A stretch of DNA of 64,000 bases, taken from Lachnospiraceae bacterium. Lineage in GTDB: Bacteria; Bacillota; Clostridia; Lachnospirales; Lachnospiraceae. Under the pieces are notes generated by a model. That model had not been told where the DNA came from and searched no databases. It worked only from the letters and a program-made list of their open reading frames with translations. Shown piece by piece: positions 26,026 to 40,563 of the stretch; within the stretch, counting starts at the first letter, position 1, and the number at the start of each line of letters is the position of its first letter. The stretch is from the NCBI GenBank assembly GCA_029005135.1, contig JAQXFO010000022.1, forward strand, positions 2,589 to 66,588. The letters are read 5' to 3'. Both the position numbers and the translations under genes were made by a program.

Positions 26026-26709
26026 TTATGACAGCACTTCAAAGCTGCCGGCGATCGTATCGAAGACAGCCTCCTCCGATCCGGCTCCGGCATTGCTCGT
26101 CCAGCAGCAGATCTGGTAAAAAGCCGTCTCGGTCTCCGCCGTGTACAGCGTATAAGCCACACGCCCGGCCTGGCTGTCAGCCGTAAACTGGGCAATATAG
26201 CCGCTAAGGCCGTCTCTGCCGAGGCTGATGGGCGTCAGCTGGCCCATCTGCACATCGGAGAACAGGCTGCTGGCCGTCATCCCCTGTACCAGGGTCTCGG
26301 TATAATCCCGGACATCCGACAGAATCGAACCTTCCCTGCTCTCGCAGCAGGCCAGAAGGAAGGCGGCTTCTTCCGGGCAGCCGGCCCGAAGGGGATAGGC
26401 CGCCTCAACGGAACCGTCGGTACTCATAAAGCCCGACATATCGCTCCAGTTATCTGGAAACTGAAGACGCATGCTCCCGTCGGCGCTGTCTATGGACTTT
26501 GTCAGCGTGATAACAGCCGCCTCCGCCCCGCTTTCGGGTTCACTGTCGGCCTGACTTTCCTCTGCCGGCAGACTGATGCCGCTCTCCGGCAGGCTCGTGT
26601 CCGAAACCGGTGTGCGGTCTGAGCCGCAGCCGGCCGTCAATAACGATGCCGCCAGAAGAAAACCGGCCAGAACGGATACGCTTTGGCGGCAGTATTTCCT
26701 GTATGTCAT
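26026..26709 (-). CDS. lipoprotein of unknown function
   Basis: Lipobox LLTAGCG after a hydrophobic signal, then an acidic Ser-rich linker. No recognised motif. Confidence 0.65.
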   Translation of the reverse strand: MTYRKYCRQSVSVLAGFLLAASLLTAGCGSDRTPVSDTSLPESGISLPAEESQADSEPESGAEAAVITLTKSIDSADGSMRLQFPDNWSDMSGFMSTDGSVEAAYPLRAGCPEEAAFLLACCESREGSILSDVRDYTETLVQGMTASSLFSDVQMGQLTPISLGRDGLSGYIAQFTADSQAGRVAYTLYTAETETAFYQICCWTSNAGAGSEEAVFDTIAGSFEVLS

Positions 26710-28040: not shown

Positions 28041-29474
28041 TTATACCGTGATATCCGCTGTCATGCCCAGTTCTTTTTCATGGGCTTCAAGAACCGGTCT
28101 GACAACCGTATCGAGATAGCGCGCCGTCTGCTCCGGCGCCCGGCCCACGTAACGCTGCGGGTCGGCAGCCGCCTCCAGCGCTTCCTTTGTCATGCCGAAG
28201 GCCGGGTCGGCGGCAATCAGATCAAAGAGGTTGTTGTCACCGCCCTCTTCCTTAACAACACGTCCCGCCTGCATGGACAGCCGGCGGATCTTTTCGTGAA
28301 GTTCCTGCCGGTCACCTCCGGCTTTGACGGCATCCATCATGATGTTTTCCGTCATCATGAAAGGAAGCTCCGCTCTCAGATGCTTCTCAATAACCTTCGG
28401 GTAGACCACCAGGCCGCCGGTAACATTGAGAAGAAGATCAAGAACACCATCGATTGTCAGGAATCCTTCCGCCACGGAAAAACGGCGATTGGCCGAATCG
28501 TCCAGGGTTCTCTCAAGCCACTGGGACGAAGAGGTCATCTCACTGTTCAGGATATCGGTCATCACATAGCGTGACAGGCCGGCGATGCGCTCACAGCGCA
28601 TCGGATTGCGCTTGTAGGCCATGGCCGATGACCCGATCTGATTTTTTTCAAAGGGCTCTTCGATCTCCTTTTCATGCTGAAGGAGACGAATGTCCCCGGC
28701 AAACTTAGTAGCACTGGCGGCAATACCGGCCAGAACACCGAGAACCCGGGTATCGACCTTGCGGGAGTAGGTCTGACCCGATACCGGCACGCAGCCTTCA
28801 AACCCCATCTTGTCGGCAATCCGCTGATCCAGCCTTTCGCATCTGTCGTGATCGCCGGCAAAAAGCTCCAGGAAAGAAGCCTGGGTACCCGTCGTACCCT
28901 TGGAGCCCAGCAGCTTCAGAGAATCCCGGACATAATTCAGATCCTCCAGATCCATCATAAATTCATTGATCCAGAGCGTCGCCCGTTTTCCCACCGTCGT
29001 CGGCTGAGCCGGCTGAAAATGCGTATAGGCCAGACAGGGCAGGGACTTATAGGTATCCGCGAAATCTGCCAGCTGAGCAATCACGCTGAGAAGCTTGCCT
29101 CTGACAAGATCCAGGGCTTCCCGCATGACGATGACATCGGTATTGTCACCGACATAGCAGCTGGTCGCGCCGAGATGGATGATGCCTTTCGCCTTCGGGC
29201 ACTGCAGGCCATAGGCATAGACATGGGACATGACATCATGGCGGACCACCTTCTCGCGTGCCGCCGCTTCCTCGTAATTGATGTCGTCGGCATGACTCTT
29301 CATCTCTTCGATCTGCTCATCGGTGATAGGCAGTCCCAGTTCCTTTTCCGTCTCGGCCAAAGCGATCCAGAGACGGCGCCAGGTGCGGAATTTCTTCTCC
29401 GCCGAGAACAGATACTGCATCTCCTTAGAGGCATAGCGGCCCGAAAGCGGGCTGACATAGCGGTTTTCGTTCAC
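28041..29474 (-). CDS. purB: adenylosuccinate lyase
   Basis: Fumarate-lyase signature GSSAMAYKRNP. N-terminus YVSPLSGRYASKEM. There is no Met upstream. The GTG at 29474 is preceded by GGAAAGGAAAAA. The track's extension to 29744 overlaps the ABC ATPase gene. Confidence 0.92.
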   Translation of the reverse strand: MNENRYVSPLSGRYASKEMQYLFSAEKKFRTWRRLWIALAETEKELGLPITDEQIEEMKSHADDINYEEAAAREKVVRHDVMSHVYAYGLQCPKAKGIIHLGATSCYVGDNTDVIVMREALDLVRGKLLSVIAQLADFADTYKSLPCLAYTHFQPAQPTTVGKRATLWINEFMMDLEDLNYVRDSLKLLGSKGTTGTQASFLELFAGDHDRCERLDQRIADKMGFEGCVPVSGQTYSRKVDTRVLGVLAGIAASATKFAGDIRLLQHEKEIEEPFEKNQIGSSAMAYKRNPMRCERIAGLSRYVMTDILNSEMTSSSQWLERTLDDSANRRFSVAEGFLTIDGVLDLLLNVTGGLVVYPKVIEKHLRAELPFMMTENIMMDAVKAGGDRQELHEKIRRLSMQAGRVVKEEGGDNNLFDLIAADPAFGMTKEALEAAADPQRYVGRAPEQTARYLDTVVRPVLEAHEKELGMTADITV

Positions 29475-29601
29475 GTTATTTTTCCTTTCCGACCGGCAGC
29501 ACACCGGTCGCCGGAGACATTTTACACCATGCCTGCCTCTTCGGCAAGCATGGTGCTGTAATTTACGCAAGATGGCATCAGGCGCTCCCGGAGACCTTCT
29601 C

Positions 29602-30357
29602 TCAGCCTTCGTAGCGACCGAGGAAATCATTGATGCGCTTGTTGCCGGAATCGAAGACCTCCGCCGGCGTGCCGGATACCGCGATCTCACCCTCATCCAT
29701 GAAAATGATGCGGTCGGAAATGTTGCGGGCAAACTGCATCTCATGGGTAACGATCACCATGGTGATATGCATCTCGGCCAGGCTCTTGATGACCCGCAGG
29801 ACCTCGGCTGTCAGTTCGGGATCGAGGGCTGACGTCGGTTCGTCAAAGAAGAGCACCTTCGGATTGAGCGCCAGCGCCCGGGCAATGGCCACACGCTGAC
29901 ACTGGCCGCCGGACAGCTGATACGGATAGAAATCGGCCCTGTCCGCCAGGCCCATGCGGTCCAGAAGCTCCCGGGCCTTCTGTTCGGCACTCCGGGGATC
30001 CTCCTTCCAGATATGGATCGGCGCATCGGTGATGTTCTGCATCACCGACCGGTGAGGAAAGAGATTGAAATTCTGAAAAACCATGCCGAAATAGCTGCGG
30101 ATGCGTTTCAGGTCAGCCCCTGTGGGACTGATCAGACGGCCGTCCTCGACGCGGGCGGCACTTTCACCCAGATATCGGATCTCTCCGGCATCAATGGTCT
30201 CGAGAAGCGTGGCACAGCGCAGGATTGTGGTTTTACCCGAACCGCTGCGACCGATGATCGACAGTATCTCACCCTCATTGACCCGGATCGAGATATCCTT
30301 GAGAACCTCATGGCTGCCGAAGCTTTTCCTGATATTGTTGATTTCCAGTAAACTCAT
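29602..30357 (-). CDS. polar amino acid ABC transporter ATP-binding protein
   Basis: GRSGSGKTT Walker [16 protein letters not shown] and [11 protein letters not shown]. Confidence 0.92.
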
Positions 30358-32058: not shown

Positions 32059-32835
32059 TCAGACATCCGCGGCCCGGTGGTATTCCCGCATCAGATCAGC
32101 CAGATAACTCTTCATATCGGCCGCCTCGGGATAACGCACGGCGGCCGCCGCTTCCCTGAGACCGCGGTCTATCTCCTCCCGCGTCCTGTCGTCGACGCCG
32201 CGCTTTTTCAGTTCTTCCTCATATTTCTCCCGGGGTCTGGCAATGGCACAGACATAGAGATAATCCTTAAGGGCCTCCCGGGTATAGGAAAGGCTCAGCG
32301 CCTTTTCAAAATCTGACAGGGCCTCCGGATACGCCAGAAGCTGCATATGGGCCACACCGATATTGTGCCAGACGGAAGCCGCCAGCACCTCGCCGGAGCG
32401 GCACTCCTCCATCCGCAGCACCTCCCGGTAGACGTTGACGGCGCCGGCGAGGCGGCCGCAGCGCACCAGAGCATCACCCTTCTTCTTCAGACGGACAGCC
32501 TCGCTGTCCCGGGACAGAGCCTGAAGCCGCCGCTCAAAGGCCTGCATATCCCGATGTGAGAGATACGCCTCCTCCCGGAGGATCGCCGTCACAAAAGGCG
32601 CCGTCGGCTCATCTTCCGCCAGTACCTTTTCCAGGGTGCGGGCCAGGGCCGCCATGCCGAGCTGCTCCTCAAACCAGCGGGCCAGTTCCCGGCAGACGAA
32701 GCTCTCGTCCAGCAGCGCCGTCTCATTGACGATAAAATAGCAGATCTCCTCGATCGAACGGGCATTGACGCCGATCGAAGCGATGTAGAACGGTTCCTCC
32801 GCTCTCTTAGTCAGGCAAAGTCTCAAACAACCCAT
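32059..32835 (-). CDS. TPR-repeat protein of unknown function
   Basis: Two recognisable TPR units (KKKGDALVRCGRLAGAVNVYREVL; WHNIGVAHMQLLAYPEALSDFEKALSL). ATG at 32835 has GGAGG 6 nt upstream. Confidence 0.7.
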   Translation of the reverse strand: MGCLRLCLTKRAEEPFYIASIGVNARSIEEICYFIVNETALLDESFVCRELARWFEEQLGMAALARTLEKVLAEDEPTAPFVTAILREEAYLSHRDMQAFERRLQALSRDSEAVRLKKKGDALVRCGRLAGAVNVYREVLRMEECRSGEVLAASVWHNIGVAHMQLLAYPEALSDFEKALSLSYTREALKDYLYVCAIARPREKYEEELKKRGVDDRTREEIDRGLREAAAAVRYPEAADMKSYLADLMREYHRAADV

Positions 32836-32879: not shown

Positions 32880-34127
32880 TCACAAGTCCAGTTCCTCCTG
32901 CCACACAAGACCCGCCGGCGGATAGAAGCCGCCGAAGCCCAGGTCCTCGACCCGGATGAGACAGCGGGTCGGCGACAGCATGCTCACGCGAAGCGACAGC
33001 CGTGTCGTCCGGTTGGGCCGGTTCGGCAATCCCGGCAGATCCATCCGGCACTGACGTTTATCGCGTCCGCTGATAGGATTCAGGGAAAATGTCAGAGAGT
33101 CCGTATTATCCAGAATAAACTCACAGTATTTATCGGCGTCGAACCAGTTGCGTCCGGCGGAAATCAACGGGTAATAGGACGGCACGCCGCGGACGACCAT
33201 TTCCATGCCCAGGTTGGTACGGACCAGATCGTCTCCCATGTAGAGCTGTCCCTTCAGGCTGTGGGTCTCCTGTTTTTCCAGGGAGGTGTAGCAGGCCCCG
33301 CGGACATAGAGATTCTCACCGCTGAAGACATGGCGGCGGCTCTGGCAGAGGAAAGCTGTGGATCGGTCGGCCCAGGTCACGTCAAAGCCGCTGCCGCACA
33401 GATAAACCGATGAGAACAGCCGCCGGTTCATCTGCACCCCGGCAAAGGCCAGGAAGGCTTCGTCACGGGCGTATTTCTCCGCCGGCAGCTGTGTCTCCCC
33501 GCCTCGCAGCAGCCGCACGGAGGCCGGCCGCGTCGTGCGGTCCATCGTCAGAGACACGCAGCTGACGGTGTCGCCTTCAAATTCATAGAGAATCGCATCC
33601 CGGGTGCACAGCTCCGGCTTCTGAGAATAAACATAGTAATAGAAACTTTCCATGTGATTCTGAACTGTCAGTGCCTCCGGCGAAAGCCCCAGCGAAAAGC
33701 AGGCCGTACGCAGGTTATCCACCAGCCCCTTGGTCAGGGAACGTGTCGTGACGGTCAGATGGCTGATCGCTCGAATGACATCGCGAACCCCCGTCAGAGC
33801 CAGCGCCTTCTCGAGAAAAACAGCCAGAAGCGCCGCCGGCGTTTTCCTGCGTCCGTCCACCTCGACGTCAGCGGTGCCGCAGAAGACATCGTAGAGATCC
33901 GGTACCGGGACGCCGTTGTCCCGGGAACCGAAATAGTCGGCCTCCAGACCGAAATGCCACTCTTCTTTACCGGCGATCTTGGTCAGATGTGTCGGAAAGG
34001 TATAGAGATTGGTGCCCACCTTGACGGGGACGGACACAGGCTCGCCGGCACGGCGTTCGTAATAGCTGAGCTGACAGCTGTCACGGTTAAGTTCAAAGCC
34101 AATCAGAAGATTGCGGATCTCATTCAC
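32880..34127 (-). CDS. divergent lidless Hsp70-like protein (NBD + SBD-beta, degenerate phosphate loops)
   Basis: By-eye collinear match to DnaK. Matches are LLIGFELNRDSC / IGIDLGTTNSC, AILYEFEGDTVSCVSL / IAVYDLGGGTFDISII, VYLCGSGFD / ILVGGQTRMP, and LGMEM..GLPNRPNRTTRLSLRVSM / LGIET..[18 protein letters not shown]. The GTG start overlaps the upstream stop by 8 nt, with AAGGAGAGGA as SD. Confidence 0.72.
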   Translation of the reverse strand: MNEIRNLLIGFELNRDSCQLSYYERRAGEPVSVPVKVGTNLYTFPTHLTKIAGKEEWHFGLEADYFGSRDNGVPVPDLYDVFCGTADVEVDGRRKTPAALLAVFLEKALALTGVRDVIRAISHLTVTTRSLTKGLVDNLRTACFSLGLSPEALTVQNHMESFYYYVYSQKPELCTRDAILYEFEGDTVSCVSLTMDRTTRPASVRLLRGGETQLPAEKYARDEAFLAFAGVQMNRRLFSSVYLCGSGFDVTWADRSTAFLCQSRRHVFSGENLYVRGACYTSLEKQETHSLKGQLYMGDDLVRTNLGMEMVVRGVPSYYPLISAGRNWFDADKYCEFILDNTDSLTFSLNPISGRDKRQCRMDLPGLPNRPNRTTRLSLRVSMLSPTRCLIRVEDLGFGGFYPPAGLVWQEELDL

Positions 34128-37100
34128 GGCCCTTATCCTCTCCTTCCTCTTTCAGTCTGAACAAGGCGGCTGCCATCTGCGTCAGACGGCTGTAATCCCG
34201 GAGTTTTTCCCGAAGGACCTCCGTCTTGCCCAGCTTCTGTGCCGACAGCATCTGATTGATCAGCTGATAACGGCTGCGGCCCGTCATATCCACACGGGCC
34301 ATCGTTTCTGTCCTCTCGGGTGTTAAGCGGGAAACGCCGTTGTGCTCGATCTTCAGATACCAGGTCAGCACCTCGCCGTAGAACAGCACGAATTCCCGGG
34401 AATACAGACCGTAACACATCTCCCTGAGCGGTTCGCTGACAAAGGGCTCGCCGGTATCGGCAGGTCCGCTGCTTAAGCGGTAATAGAGGGTCACCCGGTC
34501 CTTCGGTCCGGCAAAGGTCTCCACGAAGATCCTGTCCTCGAGGCCGTAACCGGCCAGAGCCCGGCGGGGCAGTTTCCGGCAGAAGCCCAGGCGAATGTCA
34601 TCCTCGGCCATAATCTCCAGGATGCGGTCCGCCCGTCTCTCCTCCTCATCGTCAAGGGATCCCTGATCGGCATAGGCCTGGAGCAGCGCCAGCAGGCAGA
34701 TGCCGTCCAGCTCCCATTTCCGGTCCATAGCCTCCTCCAACAGGCGGCGTGTGTAGGTGTTCAGCGGGCAGAGCCGGCGGAAGGCCTGATGGGATTCAAA
34801 TGTCATCATCGCCAGCACGATGCGTGCCCTGCCGCCCTGCCGGCGGTAGCTGTGCAGGATCTGACCGCCGTCGTTCAGGGAGCGGCGGACAAACATGGCC
34901 TGCATCAGGATCCTTTCATCGAAATCATAGGTCTCCAGATAAAAGGCGGCGGCGCTTTGACGGATCCGAAGACAGATGTCAAGCGGCCCGGTATAGTATT
35001 TCATCAGATAGGTCAGTATGCTGTCATCATACTTGTCATGGCTGAAGACATAGAAGGCCGCCTTGAGAAGGCTGTCATCCGGGCCGTCGGCCTCCCGGAC
35101 ACGGCGGCTCACCAGGGGCATCATCAGCGCCGGGTTGACGCGTTCGTAACCGCAGCGCGTCATGAGGTACCAGGCCTTGGCATCCAGCGCATGGGTCAGA
35201 AGTGTCTCCAGATACCCGATCCTGTCCGTCTTGACAAAGAGGGAATCCCGGACCTTCGACAGAAGGCTCTCCGCCTTCGTACTCAGCGGATGATCGGTAA
35301 AATACGCCAGGATCCCGCGGCAGGCCTTTTCACGGTAAGCCGTCGTGAAGGCGTCGCTATCGGCAATGTAGGCCAGGGCACTGAGGCGGGCCTCTTCATC
35401 GAGGATTTCCGGGCGGCGGCAGGCATGGAGAACCAGGCCGGGCGTCATCACACCCAGCTTCAGGCAGTCGGCAGTCAGTGCCTCGTCATCGGAGAACCTT
35501 TCCAGAGAATAGGCCACACCGGAGGCATAACGGGCCCCCCGGGCATCACAGAAGGCGATCACCGCCTCCGGCGTATAGAGAGGGATATAGGCCGTGCCGC
35601 CCTTCAGCTTGACACAGATCTCCCCCTCCAGCTCGCCGTGCACCACGACGACCTCCCTCATCCGCGGATCATCACAGTAGAGGCGGGCCGTAAAGGCGGT
35701 GCCGGCCAGGGCGCCGGCGATCACACGGTCATCGGCCTTCGGGTAAAACTCGCGGTACAGAACAGCATAATTCTCGTCCATGGCCCCGTCCATCAGGGCC
35801 CGGGCCGTAAATTCGCCCATGGCGGGCAGATAGTCGTCGTAGGTGCCGGGGTCTGCCGTCTTGTTGCGGACGATATTGGCATAGATAAAGGCCATACGGG
35901 ATCGGCTCACACCGCCGGACAGCAGGAAATACTTGCGGATCGGCAGCGGCAGCTTATCACGGAAGGACGGCGGGATCGTCTCGATATAGAACTCATAGAG
36001 GCGTGTCAGGCGCACGCCCTTGTCCACCGCCTCGGCATACCAGCGGAAATACGCCGGCCGCGCCGGCTCTCCCTTCATGATATGGCGGCAGATCGCCTCC
36101 AGCGCTTCGGAAGACGGCCAGCGGTCATAGCCCTCCGTCAGGATCCGGTACATCTGGGGACGGAAGGCCTTCTCATTGTCCGCCAGAAGGCAGACACGGT
36201 TATAAAGGGCCTCCGTCATCAGGTCATAGCGGGCGGCAAACAGGAGTACCCGGCGGGTAAAGGCATTGAGGCGCAGCAGGCTGTCCTGCCAGCGCAGCAG
36301 CGAAACGGCTTCCATATAAAGAAGGGGGCTGCTGCAGCCGCTGCGGTCCATCTCCTCCATCATGCGGAGCTTTTTGCCGGGACTGCGGGCCAGCTCATCG
36401 TCAACCTGCATCAGGATCAGCATCAGCACACTGCTCTCACGACAGCGCTGATACCAGTCGCGCAGGCGCGCCTTCACATCGATGCTGCCGGGCGTCAGAA
36501 GCCCCAGCACATGGCACAGATAGAGAAAGCTGCCCTTGATCTCCAGGCTCTCTCCGGAGAAATCATAGTCCTGCAGAGATCGGACAAGCCGGGATGCCGT
36601 GCCTTTGTCACCCGAGACCCAGGCCACATAAGCTTCATAGAGCGTTATGTCAACCGGGCAAGGACCAAGATCGCGGACGGCAGTGATCGTCATCAGGGAA
36701 CGCCGGCTCCAGGCGGCGGTATCCAGACGGTTCATACGGAAGTCCAGATACAGACGCATCAGACGGGCCCGGCTCTTTCTGACAGCTTCGGCGGCATTCG
36801 GGCGATGGGGACCGCGGCGGGAAGCTGTCACCTCAAAGACAAGACGCTGTTCGTCAGAGGTCAGAATCAGACGCCCATAGCAGCAGGTCCTGCCCAGGCG
36901 GTCGGCATGAATGATATAGGGTACGTCGCAAACAGAGCCGATGAAGTCCTGATCGGTGATCCGGCGGCGCACCGCTTCCAGGAAGCTCCCCTCCGTCTCC
37001 ACACGGAAATTCAGAAGCCCCCAGGTATGGCGTGTCAGACGCAGCGACTCGCAGGTATCGCTGTCCACATGATAAAAAGCGCGGGACGGCTGATCCACAG

Positions 37101-37680
37101 ACACCGTCACAGCCTTTTTCCTGCCGGAAGCGACCAGAAAGGCCTCCAGCCTCTGAGCCGTCACCGGGTTGCGGGACAGGGCACGGTAGAGAGGCAGAAG
37201 TCCCTCATCCTCACCGGTCAGAAGCGACGGAAAACGGCGGCTTGAGAAAAGGCGCAGTGCCTCGCCCCCGGCCTGCTCGCTGAGAGCGGTGAACTCATCC
37301 AGCGTCTCGATACCCGCTGCCCGCCCTTCGCCGACGGCCTCCTCGATATCGAGCTCGATGGGGATGACCTTCTCGCCGGCCGAGGAAACGATCGTGACGG
37401 AAGCCTGCAGCGTATCACCCGGCCGGAGGCCCCGGACATTGATGCTGATTCTGACCGAAACCGACGTGCCGCGGAAGGTCTCCTCCGACAGTGTCACGCG
37501 GGGACTGTCCGTCGACAGGAAGCCGCGTATCGGAACATCCTCCTCCGTGCCGATATTAATCTCCGCCGCATAGTCCGAATCGGCAGGCACCGACGCCGTC
37601 AGGCGCTCCGGCGCCGTGATCAGTTCCGGCGCATCGGGTTCGTATTTCCCGGTAATAAGATGCTCTATTCTGCGTAACAA
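34120..37680 (-). CDS. 1186-aa cytoplasmic protein of unknown function (two N-terminal beta-sandwich-like modules + long helical region)
   Basis: Continuous ORF 34120..37800. I prefer the TTG at 37680 (GGGGGA SD 6 nt upstream), which lies downstream of the promoter at 37754-37726. No TM, signal peptide or catalytic motif recognised. Confidence 0.72.
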   Translation of the reverse strand: MLRRIEHLITGKYEPDAPELITAPERLTASVPADSDYAAEINIGTEEDVPIRGFLSTDSPRVTLSEETFRGTSVSVRISINVRGLRPGDTLQASVTIVSSAGEKVIPIELDIEEAVGEGRAAGIETLDEFTALSEQAGGEALRLFSSRRFPSLLTGEDEGLLPLYRALSRNPVTAQRLEAFLVASGRKKAVTVSVDQPSRAFYHVDSDTCESLRLTRHTWGLLNFRVETEGSFLEAVRRRITDQDFIGSVCDVPYIIHADRLGRTCCYGRLILTSDEQRLVFEVTASRRGPHRPNAAEAVRKSRARLMRLYLDFRMNRLDTAAWSRRSLMTITAVRDLGPCPVDITLYEAYVAWVSGDKGTASRLVRSLQDYDFSGESLEIKGSFLYLCHVLGLLTPGSIDVKARLRDWYQRCRESSVLMLILMQVDDELARSPGKKLRMMEEMDRSGCSSPLLYMEAVSLLRWQDSLLRLNAFTRRVLLFAARYDLMTEALYNRVCLLADNEKAFRPQMYRILTEGYDRWPSSEALEAICRHIMKGEPARPAYFRWYAEAVDKGVRLTRLYEFYIETIPPSFRDKLPLPIRKYFLLSGGVSRSRMAFIYANIVRNKTADPGTYDDYLPAMGEFTARALMDGAMDENYAVLYREFYPKADDRVIAGALAGTAFTARLYCDDPRMREVVVVHGELEGEICVKLKGGTAYIPLYTPEAVIAFCDARGARYASGVAYSLERFSDDEALTADCLKLGVMTPGLVLHACRRPEILDEEARLSALAYIADSDAFTTAYREKACRGILAYFTDHPLSTKAESLLSKVRDSLFVKTDRIGYLETLLTHALDAKAWYLMTRCGYERVNPALMMPLVSRRVREADGPDDSLLKAAFYVFSHDKYDDSILTYLMKYYTGPLDICLRIRQSAAAFYLETYDFDERILMQAMFVRRSLNDGGQILHSYRRQGGRARIVLAMMTFESHQAFRRLCPLNTYTRRLLEEAMDRKWELDGICLLALLQAYADQGSLDDEEERRADRILEIMAEDDIRLGFCRKLPRRALAGYGLEDRIFVETFAGPKDRVTLYYRLSSGPADTGEPFVSEPLREMCYGLYSREFVLFYGEVLTWYLKIEHNGVSRLTPERTETMARVDMTGRSRYQLINQMLSAQKLGKTEVLREKLRDYSRLTQMAAALFRLKEEGEDKGRE

Positions 37681-37699: not shown

Positions 37700-37754
37700 T
37701 TGACCAGACATCTTTTACAGCGTAAATTATATATCAGTTCGCACTTTTGCGCAA
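37700..37754. promoter_or_regulatory. overlapping divergent promoters
   Basis: Plus strand: TTGACC (37700-37705), 17-nt spacer, TAAATT (37723-37728). Minus strand: TTGCGC (37754-37749), 17-nt spacer, TATAAT (37731-37726). The two -10 boxes overlap in taaattatatat. Confidence 0.5.
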
Positions 37755-37773
37755 TTTCATGAAAGGAACCGCC

Positions 37774-38871
37774 ATGGGACAGAACAAAACGCCCTTCCAC
37801 GGCAGTGATCTGGAGAAGGTCGAAGCCGTCTACGGGATCAAAAAGGAATCCATCATCAGCTATGCTGCCAATGTCAATCCGCTGGGCATTTCATCAAAGC
37901 TTAAGGAGACGCTGGCCGGCCATCTGGATGCTATCACGCGCTATCCCGATCCGGATTACGCCGACCTGCGCCGGGTCATCGGCACCTACTGCGGTGCCTG
38001 CCCCGACAACATCATCTGCGGCAGCGGCGCCACCGAGCTGATCTCTCTGGTTCTGACCGTCCGACGTCCCAGAAAAGCCGTCATCATCGGACCGACCTAT
38101 TCCGAATACGAACGGGAGATCGCCCTGGGCGGCGGCACCTCGAATTATTATCCCCTGCGGGAAGAAGAGGCTTTTCGTCTGAATACGGAAGAATTCTGCG
38201 CCTCTCTCAATGACAGCCTGGATCTTCTGGTCATCTGCAACCCGAATAACCCCACCGGCACCGCCATCGACCGCCGTGACATGCGCCGCATCCTCGACGC
38301 CTGCATGAAGAACGGCATTTTCGTCATGGTCGACGAGACCTATGTGGAATTCGCCCGGGATGTCAATGCCGTCACCGCCGTCTCCCTGACCGAATCCTAC
38401 AACAATCTGGTGGTTCTGCGCGGCACCTCCAAGTTCTTCGCCTCGCCCGGCCTGCGTCTCGGCTATGCCGTCACCGGCAATCACGATATGCTCAAGGCCA
38501 TCAACCACCGCAAGAACCTCTGGACTATCAGTTCCCTGGCTGAAATCGCCGGCTGCATCATGTTTGCCGACGACGATTATATCCGTGCTACCCGGGAGCT
38601 CATCAGCCGGGAACGTGACCGTGTCATCGATGTCCTCTCCCGGATCGACACCATCAAGGTCTACCCGACGGAGGCCAATTTCGTGCTCTACCGGATCCTC
38701 CGGGAAGATGTGGACGCACAGCAGCTCTTCGAGTACTGCATCCGCCGTCATATGATGGTCCGCAACTGCGCCTCCTTCCCCTTCCTCGACGACAGATACG
38801 TCCGCTTCTGCTTCATGGAACCGGAACAGAATGATGCCCTCCTTGACACGATGAAAGAGATTCTTCTGTAA
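37774..38871 (+). CDS. PLP-dependent class I/II aminotransferase (histidinol-phosphate aminotransferase / threonine-phosphate decarboxylase-like)
   Basis: NVNPLG, NPNNPTG and RGTSKFFASPGLRLGY (PLP lysine) are typical of the HisC/CobD family. ATG at 37774 has a GAAAGGA SD. Confidence 0.85.
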   Translation: MGQNKTPFHGSDLEKVEAVYGIKKESIISYAANVNPLGISSKLKETLAGHLDAITRYPDPDYADLRRVIGTYCGACPDNIICGSGATELISLVLTVRRPRKAVIIGPTYSEYEREIALGGGTSNYYPLREEEAFRLNTEEFCASLNDSLDLLVICNPNNPTGTAIDRRDMRRILDACMKNGIFVMVDETYVEFARDVNAVTAVSLTESYNNLVVLRGTSKFFASPGLRLGYAVTGNHDMLKAINHRKNLWTISSLAEIAGCIMFADDDYIRATRELISRERDRVIDVLSRIDTIKVYPTEANFVLYRILREDVDAQQLFEYCIRRHMMVRNCASFPFLDDRYVRFCFMEPEQNDALLDTMKEILL

Positions 38872-38924
38872 ACACTGACGCCCAGAACTGACACCGTCAG
38901 AACGCAGTCCTGCGTTCCTCAAAA

Positions 38925-38976
38925 CCTCCCGTCCCGGTAAGGCTTCAGAGCCTTGTGACGACGGGGGGCTTTTTTG
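38925..38976 (+). terminator. intrinsic terminator after the aminotransferase gene
   Basis: CCTCCCGTC (38925-33) pairs with GACGGGGGG (38960-68). An inner AAGGCT/AGCCTT stem lies within it, and CTTTTTT follows. Confidence 0.7.
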
Positions 38977-39005
38977 TCACGACACGGCCGGCACTTCCTT
39001 TAGTG

Positions 39006-39034
39006 TTGACTAACTCTTGTGTTGAGTATACATT
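39006..39034 (+). promoter_or_regulatory. candidate promoter TTGACT-17-TACATT for the tryptophanase-family gene
   Basis: TTGACT at 39006-39011 and TACATT at 39029-39034 (or TATACA with a 15-nt spacer). Confidence 0.4.
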
Positions 39035-39114
39035 GTTATAGGTTATTGCTTTGCCACTTTAAAGCGACTCACCGTTCCTTCGGTAAAGAATTTTGTTTAA
39101 CAGGAGTATCGACT

Positions 39115-40563
39115 ATGTCTGACATCAAGTTCTACAAGCATCAACAGATTCCCTTGGAAATGCACAAGGTCAAAATCGTCCAGCAGCTCAGGCTTCTTCC
39201 CGCCGACGAAAGGCTGAAAAAAATGTATGCTGCCGGTTTCAATACCTTCCAGCTGCACAACGGTGACATTTTCCTTGATATGCTGACCGATTCCGGCGTC
39301 AACGCCATGAGCGATATGATGCAGGCGGCGATGATGCATCCCGATGATGCCTACGCCGGTTCCGAGACCTTCTTCCGTATGGCTGCCAAGCTTGAAGAGA
39401 TCTTCGGCATCAAATACTGCCTGCCGGCCCACCAGGGCCGTGCCTGTGAAAATATCCTGGCCACGCGCTTTGTCAAGCCGGGCAACTGCGTCATCATGAA
39501 TTATCACTTCACCACCGCCAAGGCCCACATCACACGAGTCGGCGGCCGTGTGGAGGAACTGGTCAGTGATGCCGGTCTTGAGACCGAGAGCACCCTCCCC
39601 TTCAAGGGAAATATCGACCTTGACAAGCTGGAGGCCTGTATCAAAAAGGAAACGCCGGCCAATATTCCCTTCGTGCGTCTTGAAGCCGGCACTAACCTGA
39701 TCGGCGGTCAGCCCGTGTCTTATGAGAATTTCAAAGCCGCCACCGACCTCTGCAAAAAATACGGCATCATGACGGTCCTTGACGCCTCTCTTCTGCAGGA
39801 CAACCTTTATTTCATCAAGACCCGCGAAGACAGCATGAAGGATAAGAGCATCCGCGAAATCACCCGCATGATTGCCGACTGCTTTGACATCATCTATTTT
39901 TCAGCCCGCAAATTCGGCTTTGCCCGCGGCGGTGCCCTGCTGATCCGTGATGAGACCCTCTTCCACTCCATGGAGGATCTGATTCCGATGTTTGAGGGTT
40001 TCCTGACTTACGGCGGCATGTCTGTGCGTGAAATGGAGGCCATGACCGTCGGCTTCGATGAATCCATGGAAATGGATGTCATATCCCAGGGCCCGCAGTT
40101 TATCAAATACATGGTTGATGAGCTGGCTGCCTACGGTGTCCCGATGGTCACCCCGGCCGGTGGCCTGGGCGGTCATATCAACGCCCGGGAGGTTCTCGAG
40201 CACCTGAAAGCCGAGGAATACCCGGCCGGCGCCCTTGTCTGCGCCCAGTATCTGGCCGGCGGCATCCGCGGCATGGAACGCGGCACGCTTTCCGAAGAGA
40301 GAAATGCCGACGGCAGTGAGCGCATTGCCTCGGTGGAGCTTGTCCGCCTGGCCGTTCCGCGCCGTGTCTTCACCCTGTCCCAGATTGAATATGTCATCGA
40401 CCGCGTCAAGTGGCTCTACGATCATCGCCGCATGATCGGCGGTCTCCGCTTCGTCCACGAACCGAAGACACTCCGCTTCTTCACCGGCATCCTGGAGCCC
40501 ACCAGTGACTGGCCCGAAAAGCTCACGGCCGCCTACAAGGCCGATTTCGGTGAAGACGCCTGA
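39115..40563 (+). CDS. beta-eliminating lyase: tryptophanase / tyrosine phenol-lyase family
   Basis: Collinear with E. coli TnaA from memory: FLDMLTDSGVNAMSDMMQAAMM, PAHQGRACENIL, the PLP-lysine motif YFSARKFGFARGG (SAKK in TnaA), and YEPKxLRxFT as HEPKTLRFFT. ATG at 39115 has a GGAG SD. Confidence 0.88.
   Translation: MSDIKFYKHQQIPLEMHKVKIVQQLRLLPADERLKKMYAAGFNTFQLHNGDIFLDMLTDSGVNAMSDMMQAAMMHPDDAYAGSETFFRMAAKLEEIFGIKYCLPAHQGRACENILATRFVKPGNCVIMNYHFTTAKAHITRVGGRVEELVSDAGLETESTLPFKGNIDLDKLEACIKKETPANIPFVRLEAGTNLIGGQPVSYENFKAATDLCKKYGIMTVLDASLLQDNLYFIKTREDSMKDKSIREITRMIADCFDIIYFSARKFGFARGGALLIRDETLFHSMEDLIPMFEGFLTYGGMSVREMEAMTVGFDESMEMDVISQGPQFIKYMVDELAAYGVPMVTPAGGLGGHINAREVLEHLKAEEYPAGALVCAQYLAGGIRGMERGTLSEERNADGSERIASVELVRLAVPRRVFTLSQIEYVIDRVKWLYDHRRMIGGLRFVHEPKTLRFFTGILEPTSDWPEKLTAAYKADFGEDA

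Follow-up and report, generated by a model that had tools for sequence, protein, structure and literature searches.

Although few proteins have been studied as thoroughly as Hsp70s, the bacterial ones are usually described as just DnaK, HscA and HscC. In canonical members of the family (DnaK, Hsc70, BiP; PF00012) a nucleotide-binding domain (NBD) is followed by a hydrophobic linker, an eight-stranded substrate-binding sandwich (SBD-beta), a helical SBD-alpha lid and a C-terminal tail, and a keyword search of a 2021 review of bacterial Hsp70 machines returned no text matches for truncated, lidless or atypical paralogues. Here, we analyze a gene for a 415-residue protein carrying the Pfam domain of unknown function (DUF) DUF5716, located in a 64,000-nucleotide stretch of a Lachnospiraceae bacterium genome (GenBank assembly GCA_029005135.1, contig JAQXFO010000022.1, positions 2,589 to 66,588; hereafter the window). 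We find that it encodes a minimized, lidless, catalytically degenerate bacterial Hsp70 paralogue within a conserved three-gene module, and that its family was previously known only as Pfam DUFs.

Three described systems offer points of comparison. Ssz1, the atypical Hsp70 of the eukaryotic ribosome-associated complex and an obligate partner of another protein, binds ATP without hydrolyzing it, is unable to go through the canonical cycle and is lidless, and its SBD-beta is complemented by the N-terminus of Zuo1, which occupies the cleft as a pseudo-substrate (PMC7083937). The DUF5716 protein resembles Ssz1/HSPA14 in being lidless and in having a degenerate site, and a comparable partner complex is suggested by synteny, a start/stop overlap and gene fusions. 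However, Ssz1 has a full-size NBD with subdomain IIB, binds ATP, and pairs with a J-domain protein on the ribosome, whereas the DUF5716 partners are a scaffold of immunoglobulin-like (Ig) domains and tetratricopeptide repeats (TPR) and a second TPR protein, with no J-domain by Pfam and in a bacterial lineage; the comparison is offered as a functional analogy, with no direct orthology implied. Hsp110/Sse1 is likewise a member of the Hsp70 superfamily, held in a locked, ATP-like docked state and acting by binding, as an exchange factor or holdase, instead of by cycling, and it is recovered by Foldseek at E ~1e-14. Hsp110 exceeds Hsp70 in size, retains both lid and IIB, and depends on ATP binding, whereas the DUF5716 protein is a minimized version. 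Finally, Kaur et al. 2020 (eLife, PMC7159879) described GTPase-centered prokaryotic conflict systems with HSP70, GrpE, and fibronectin type III (FNIII)/TPR/DnaJ proteins. These systems, also present in Firmicutes, similarly link non-housekeeping bacterial Hsp70-family genes to beta-sandwich-repeat and TPR proteins, but they carry GAP1-N2 GTPases, GrpE and DnaJ fusions, none of which we found in the DUF5716 cluster, which sits in a conserved genomic context of housekeeping genes.

The gene lies exactly where an initial annotation, made by eye from the letters, had placed an open reading frame and proposed an Hsp70 fold for its product:

32880-34127, minus strand: Hsp70-like gene, 415 residues, GTG start, stop codon at 32880-32882

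Residues 123-415 match Pfam DUF5716_C (PF18980) with 309.7 bits against a gathering cut-off of 34.7 (E=2e-92). A word-indexed search returned 294 relatives at E<=1e-3, and all 56 that we aligned match the DUF5716 hidden Markov model (HMM). Besides DUF5716_C, the protein has no match in NCBIfam, PADLOC or PHROGs. In the libraries searched, neither function nor fold is annotated for the DUF5716 and DUF5717 entries (PF18980, PF18984, PF18983), and a full-text literature search found no paper treating DUF5716/DUF5717 biologically; combining Hsp70-like, Lachnospiraceae and TPR likewise returned nothing relevant. Likeness to Hsp70 falls below the reach of ordinary sequence searches, as neither phmmer with the single sequence nor hmmsearch with the family HMM retrieved an Hsp70 from PDB chain sequences, and none of the 56 family members matches Pfam HSP70 (PF00012) even at E<=10.

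Structural prediction and profile comparison both place the protein among Hsp70s. The AlphaFold2 model, built from the 56-sequence alignment, has a mean predicted local distance difference test score (pLDDT) of 93.0 and a predicted template modeling score (pTM) of 0.86. Foldseek against the PDB gave 286 matches at E<=1e-3, of which the best 50 are all Hsp70/Hsp110 chains aligned across NBD and SBD-beta over ~510-540 columns, with the lowest E-value, 2.1e-18, to Geobacillus kaustophilus DnaK (2v7y). The top matches include E. coli DnaK, BiP, Hsc70, Ssz1, Sse1 and mortalin, the Ssz1 structures 6sr6 and 7x3k_B appearing at E ~1e-14 to 2e-15, and identity in the structural alignments with Hsp70s is ~13%. 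For profile comparison by hhalign we used a diverse set of 126 family members (25-43% identity to the window protein) and an Hsp70 profile of three sequences (E. coli DnaK, B. subtilis DnaK and human Hsc70); the E. coli sequence used is the same as PDB 2kho at 506/507 positions. Local alignment of the two profiles yielded a single collinear match of query residues 7-403 to DnaK 3-498 (Prob 86.5%, E=4.6e-6), and global mode gave Prob 91.8% and E=9.5e-8. Aligning the family to just one DnaK sequence had given a marginal match (E=0.076), and both the diverse family profile and the small Hsp70 profile were needed. AlphaFold2, Foldseek and hhalign thus agree on the Hsp70 fold with NBD and SBD-beta that the initial annotation had read by eye, with significant matches at the level of both structure and profile, and the DUF5716 protein is confirmed as a highly diverged Hsp70-superfamily paralogue by fold and homology.

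The by-eye reading had rested on six blocks collinear with E. coli DnaK, and hhalign reproduced five of them: phosphate-1, 'PT..L..WHFG.EA' in subdomain IB, 'TVTT...LG', phosphate-2, and 'LPGLPxRP..TTRL....VEDLG' in SBD-beta. The sixth, the adenosine block pairing 'SVYLCGSGFD' with 'VILVGGQTRMP', was left unaligned by hhalign and has the support of model topology only, with a strand at 238-246, G245-x-G247-F248, and a helix at 254-260.

The domain order is that of canonical Hsp70s:

33258-34127, minus strand: actin-like NBD, residues 1 to ~290, from the order of secondary structure in the model and the hhalign match of residues 7-200 to DnaK 3-210
33219-33257, minus strand: interdomain linker, residues 291-303, with a model strand at 294-297 that aligns with 'VLLLD' of DnaK
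32883-33218, minus strand: SBD-beta-like sandwich, residues 304-415, with eight model strands and an hhalign match to DnaK 394-498

Within the modeled NBD, the phosphate-1 hairpin comprises strands 7-13 and 17-24, an IB-like region spans residues 43-112, and the phosphate-2 hairpin comprises strands 177-184 and 187-196. The DnaK NBD has ~383 residues, roughly 80 of them in the IIB lobe, which is the binding site for exchange factors. Here the NBD has ~290 residues, and the much shorter IIB recognized by eye is, in the model, one helix (218-233) standing between IIA strands 202-213 and 238-246. The linker keeps the hydrophobic stretch of canonical Hsp70s, [YF][VLI][YF]L at 294-297, predicted as a beta strand. 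In the sandwich, hydrophobic residues (M308, F337, L345 and F347) occupy the positions that align with I401, F426, V436 and I438 of the DnaK pocket, and the family keeps G325, W328, R370 and R376 together with a family-specific invariant motif, D395-x-G397-F398-G399. The eighth SBD-beta strand (residues 408-414 in the model) closes the chain, which therefore has neither a helical lid nor a C-terminal tail. The lid is thus absent, as had been proposed, but the ~20 residues thought to run on past SBD-beta are not an extension, since 408-414 form the last strand of the sandwich. Overall the protein is ~220 residues shorter than canonical Hsp70s, and family members measure about 410-430 residues. 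As the protein ends in ...EELDL, we considered an EEVD-like tail serving as a TPR-clamp ligand and rejected it, because these residues belong to the last sandwich strand in the model and the C-terminus is variable.

The model also bears on how the two domains are arranged. TM-scores from Foldseek are higher to SBD-docked DnaK (7kru 0.59, chain 7kru_B; 7krw 0.59; 4b9q 0.51) than to the undocked ADP or apo forms (2kho 0.44; 2v7y 0.43). Together with the pTM of the model and the linker predicted as a strand, this suggests that NBD and SBD-beta may be held in a fixed, docked, 'ATP-like' arrangement.

We examined the nucleotide site by column statistics over the 126 relatives, with the equivalents of K70, E171 and other DnaK residues assigned through the hhalign mapping:

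34071-34100, minus strand: phosphate-1 hairpin loop, residues 10-19 (GFELNRDSCQ)
33561-33590, minus strand: phosphate-2 hairpin loop, residues 180-189 (LYEFEGDTVS), without Gly-Gly-Gly-Thr
33372-33407, minus strand: adenosine-motif equivalent, residues 241-252 (VYLCGSGFDVTW), placed by model topology

In the phosphate-1 loop, G10 is Gly in 96% of relatives and position 12 (DnaK D8) is acidic in 96% (D 73%, E 23%), whereas just 30% have Gly at position 14 (DnaK G10), and variable, frequently acidic residues stand in place of the Thr-Thr pair. A canonical GxDxG[TS][TS] loop occurs in 1 of the 126 relatives, and a Gly-rich phosphate-2 loop, [DE]xGG, in none. Position 182 (DnaK D194) is D/E in 67%, position 156 (DnaK E171) is Gln in 56%, and position 76 (DnaK K70) is D in 33%, E in 17% and S in 9%, with no conserved Lys nearby. 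The canonical Hsp70 catalytic set (D8, K70, E171, D194, T199, DxGTT, DxGGGT) is consequently not found in the family, which, in contrast to canonical Hsp70s, conserves neither K70, E171 and T199 nor the Gly-rich loops. Elsewhere conservation is high, in the adenosine motif (G245 100%, G247 76%, F248 96%, W252 92%) and at G277 (100%), A278 (97%), E160 (87%), S161 (92%) and Q169.

These statistics refine what had been read from one sequence. Acidic substitutions in both phosphate loops hold across the family, the mean net charge being -1.8 for phosphate-1 and -1.2 for phosphate-2. The initial annotation had both the catalytic Asp and the Gly-rich loops replaced; the Gly-rich loops are indeed lost family-wide, but E12 is a conservative retention of the acidic residue of the acetate and sugar kinase/Hsc70/actin (ASKHA) superfamily. 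The window copy is typical of its orthologues rather than a degenerate outlier, and on that account a hydrolysis-dead or altered nucleotide site would be the natural reading of the sequences, in line with the proposed pseudo-ATPase or altered nucleotide handling.

The gene is flanked on the same strand by two others:

34120-37680, minus strand: DUF5717 protein, 1186 residues (Pfam DUF5717_N E=1e-203, DUF5717 E=6e-79)
34120-34127, minus strand: eight-base overlap (GTGAATGA) between the DUF5717 stop and the Hsp70-like GTG start, read directly in the sequence
32059-32835, minus strand: TPR partner protein, 258 residues (Pfam TPR_2 and TPR_1)

The open frame of the DUF5717 gene reaches a GTG at 37800 and there overlaps a divergent aminotransferase open reading frame (37747-38871, plus strand). 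Its true start is probably the TTG at 37680, giving 1186 residues, because an AGGGGGA ribosome-binding site precedes it and orthologues have 1171-1247 residues. The AlphaFold2 model of this protein (pLDDT 85.5, pTM 0.55) contains four Ig-like beta sandwiches (20-113, 193-286, 664-728 and 1050-1126) and two long TPR-like alpha solenoids (296-662 and 732-1045). Foldseek gave domain-level matches only, at TM <= 0.15 (ASH/MSP-type Ig domains; the TPR/HAT scaffolds Ctr9, Ski3, Prp6 and UNC-45), which offered no lead to a function, and neither Pfam nor Foldseek revealed a recognizable enzyme domain. As its stop codon and the start codon of the Hsp70-like gene overlap by eight nucleotides, the two genes may be translationally coupled. 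A scan of the cluster for promoters and terminators gave nothing informative.

The TPR partner has a very conserved N-terminal domain of ~110 residues followed by TPR repeats. Its first ~50 residues are the most conserved part, with L6, C7, P15, E30, L41 and D43 invariant in 81 sequences and the consensus MSGYILCQTKRAxxPYYIENISTNIYSIEELCYYLYHNLYLLD. In the window copy, L4, R5, A19 and R26 differ from the consensus.

Gene order links the three proteins closely. DUF5717, Hsp70-like and TPR genes follow one another on one strand in 84 of 87 loci, and two of the three exceptional loci are cut by contig ends; the order also persists in lineages with only 26-31% identity. In the third (L035:1-6000, from Blautia metagenome-assembled genome contig CAOJIB010000038), phage-integrase-family and DUF5105 genes in DNA of lower GC content replace DUF5717, representing either a rearrangement or insertion or an assembly chimera. 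Moreover, several independent clusters contain natural fusions in which the TPR protein is joined to the C-terminus of the Hsp70-like protein. Two of these align to the full-length window TPR protein (P0016, 692 residues, 42% identity, E=2e-62; P0157, 38% identity, E=1e-47), P0140, P0158 and P0194 also show TPR matches, and in the fusions the conserved TPR N-terminus starts within ~20 residues of the last SBD-beta strand. Unlike canonical Hsp70s, the DUF5716 protein has no DnaJ (J-domain) or GrpE partner in the cluster or adjacent genes; co-chaperones may be encoded elsewhere in the genome. Synteny with two repeat-scaffold proteins, the fusions, and the lack of a nearby J-domain or GrpE protein lend indirect support to the earlier suggestion of an adaptor rather than a cycling chaperone.

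In two distant lineages, whose Hsp70-like proteins are 28-31% identical to that of the window, a fourth gene follows the TPR gene and encodes a coiled-coil protein of ~390 residues with two central hydrophobic segments resembling transmembrane (TM) helices (L088:11002-12180 in MT835486 and L089:4222-5388 in MT835719). The two copies share 26% identity (E=7e-41), and neither the window nor loci L001-L087 yielded a homologue. The gene may be a hint that the complex is membrane-associated in those lineages.

The family is large and under selection. At E<=1e-3 an exhaustive profile search recovered 1783 clusters (50% identity), of which 688 reach E<=1e-30, and a pattern scan with a single genome for each species placed the family in at least 536 species, nearly all Lachnospiraceae or unclassified Clostridia and including Blautia, Fusicatenibacter, Oliverpabstia and Ruminococcus. 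Moderately diverged orthologues give a median ratio of nonsynonymous to synonymous substitution rates (dN/dS) of 0.067, and at ~0.07 the family is evidently functional and under strong purifying selection, with a constraint that falls elsewhere than on the Hsp70 ATPase machinery.

We consider it probable, with considerable room for doubt, that the DUF5716 protein is a non-cycling, Hsp70-derived binding subunit of a three-protein complex with the DUF5717 and TPR proteins. The Hsp70 fold has kept its two-lobed NBD, hydrophobic linker and eight-stranded SBD-beta while losing IIB, the lid and most of the machinery for ATP hydrolysis. On this model, the protein would undergo no ATP-driven cycle of opening and closing; its NBD and SBD-beta would stay permanently docked in the 'ATP-like' state, and it would join the 1186-residue Ig/TPR scaffold and the TPR protein in a stable cytoplasmic complex, providing the fixed binding module. 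The lidless SBD-beta, or the neighboring DxGFG surface, would clamp a segment of a partner. The candidate segment is the conserved extreme N-terminus of the TPR protein, by virtue of its position in the fusions, and it would play the part that the Zuo1 N-terminus plays as pseudo-substrate in Ssz1. In its most specific form, in which DUF5717, DUF5716 and TPR proteins constitute an unrecognized cytoplasmic machine of gut Lachnospiraceae with an ATPase-stripped Hsp70 as a permanent clamp on the TPR N-terminus, we advance the proposal only tentatively and would sooner bet against it than for it. If true, the permanent clamp would be the first prokaryotic counterpart of an Ssz1-type 'structural Hsp70', arisen independently of eukaryotes. 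For specialists, 'dead' Hsp70s resembling Ssz1 and making up a large family in bacteria would be a surprise, and one easily tested; the family is concentrated in abundant Lachnospiraceae of the human and animal gut (Blautia, Fusicatenibacter, Ruminococcus). It would also provide a natural experiment in what the Hsp70 scaffold can do without IIB, lid and catalytic site, and it gives DUF5716 and DUF5717 a concrete, testable structural hypothesis.

Several points weigh against a non-cycling binding subunit. The docked conformation comes from a predicted model, and both the complex and the pseudo-substrate idea derive solely from synteny and fusions. Retention of acidic position 12, G245 and G277 makes nucleotide or Mg binding possible, and even slow non-canonical hydrolysis. 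The mapping of DnaK K70 and E171 follows a profile alignment that is weak in places, and the conserved E160-S161, four residues from the E171-aligned position, could substitute for E171. We also considered the TPR protein as a lid encoded in trans and found no support for this at the sequence level: when the 81 sequences of the TPR partner were compared by hhalign with those of Hsp70 lids, the match had E=0.29.

Two alternatives would leave the nucleotide site in use. The protein could still work as an ATP-driven chaperone of the Hsp70 type, its phosphate loops being unconventional and the DUF5717 and TPR proteins its dedicated co-chaperones or clients, a reading we judge unlikely. It draws on the near-universal acidic residue at position 12, on G245/G247 and G277/A278, on E160/S161 close to the start of the E171-equivalent helix, and on the hydrophobic linker, which transmits allostery in Hsp70; against these stand a site lacking a conserved Lys in and around the K70 position as well as the phosphate-1 Thr pair and the Gly-rich phosphate-2 loop, a modeled NBD without the IIB lobe that closes over the nucleotide, the missing lid, and a cluster with no J-domain or nucleotide-exchange factor. 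The same retained residues (position 12, G245/G247, G277/A278, E160/S161) would also suit a ligand-controlled switch that binds nucleotide or another phosphorylated ligand without turnover and so regulates assembly of the three proteins, as Ssz1 provides a precedent for ATP bound without hydrolysis (PMC7083937) and Hsp110 likewise needs to bind ATP but not to hydrolyze it. This, too, seems improbable to us, given that the phosphate loops are net negative and offer no cradle of Gly/Thr backbone amides, and that the model is missing IIB, the lobe contacting adenine and ribose.

Two further readings question the setting or the kinship of the protein, and we regard each as very unlikely. Hsp70-family proteins, beta-sandwich repeats and TPR repeats are one theme of the conflict systems cited above (PMC7159879), and tblastn found the DUF5716 gene in five GenBank records from human feces labeled 'UNVERIFIED: Bacteriophage sp.' (MT835486.1, MT835719.1, MT835988.1, MT837634.1 and MT837190.1), as might be expected of a mobile anti-phage or conflict system using an Hsp70 module. 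These records are unverified metagenomic contigs, however, and we rejected MT835486 as a phage: rarA/mgsA, valS (valyl-tRNA synthetase) and glycosyltransferase genes surround the cluster there, and with such housekeeping flanks the record looks like bacterial chromosomal DNA filed as phage. PADLOC returned nothing for the three proteins but a chance-level TPR match (E=0.023), PHROGs returned none, plasmids gave no match to the cluster, and neither the cluster nor the adjacent genes yielded a GTPase, GrpE, DnaJ or effector domain. The cluster is flanked by polC and ispG on one side and by an amino-acid ATP-binding cassette (ABC) transporter, purB and purA on the other, and the polC, purB, purA and ABC transporter context is stable across lineages; the cluster looks single-copy and vertically inherited, which, like its low dN/dS, argues against a mobile system. 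On the last reading, the likeness to Hsp70 would be no more than a resemblance, and the protein would be an actin-like filament former (ParM/MreB/FtsA type) or an ASKHA enzyme of the sugar-kinase type. Its NBD does have the ASKHA fold, and loss of IIB brings its size near that of minimal ASKHA proteins. However, the Hsp70/Hsp110 chains that make up the best 50 structural matches include the second domain, the SBD-beta signature and linker align specifically to Hsp70, and the phosphate loops are unlike those of an active kinase.

Other features of the window concern its neighboring genes. A class I/II aminotransferase and a beta-eliminating lyase of the tryptophanase/tyrosine phenol-lyase type (37747-40563, plus strand) separate polC from the DUF5717 cluster; as locus L001 has polC and DUF5717 side by side, the pair looks like a lineage-specific insertion. 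The purB (adenylosuccinate lyase) open reading frame (28041-29744, minus strand) spans 567 residues versus 477 in orthologues, with its Pfam match beginning at residue 165, and its first ~90 residues, rich in Arg, Ser and Cys, are probably not translated. Directly downstream of purA, at 26026-26709 (minus strand), is a gene for a 227-residue protein with no Pfam match and a lipoprotein-type signal peptide (…LLTAGC).

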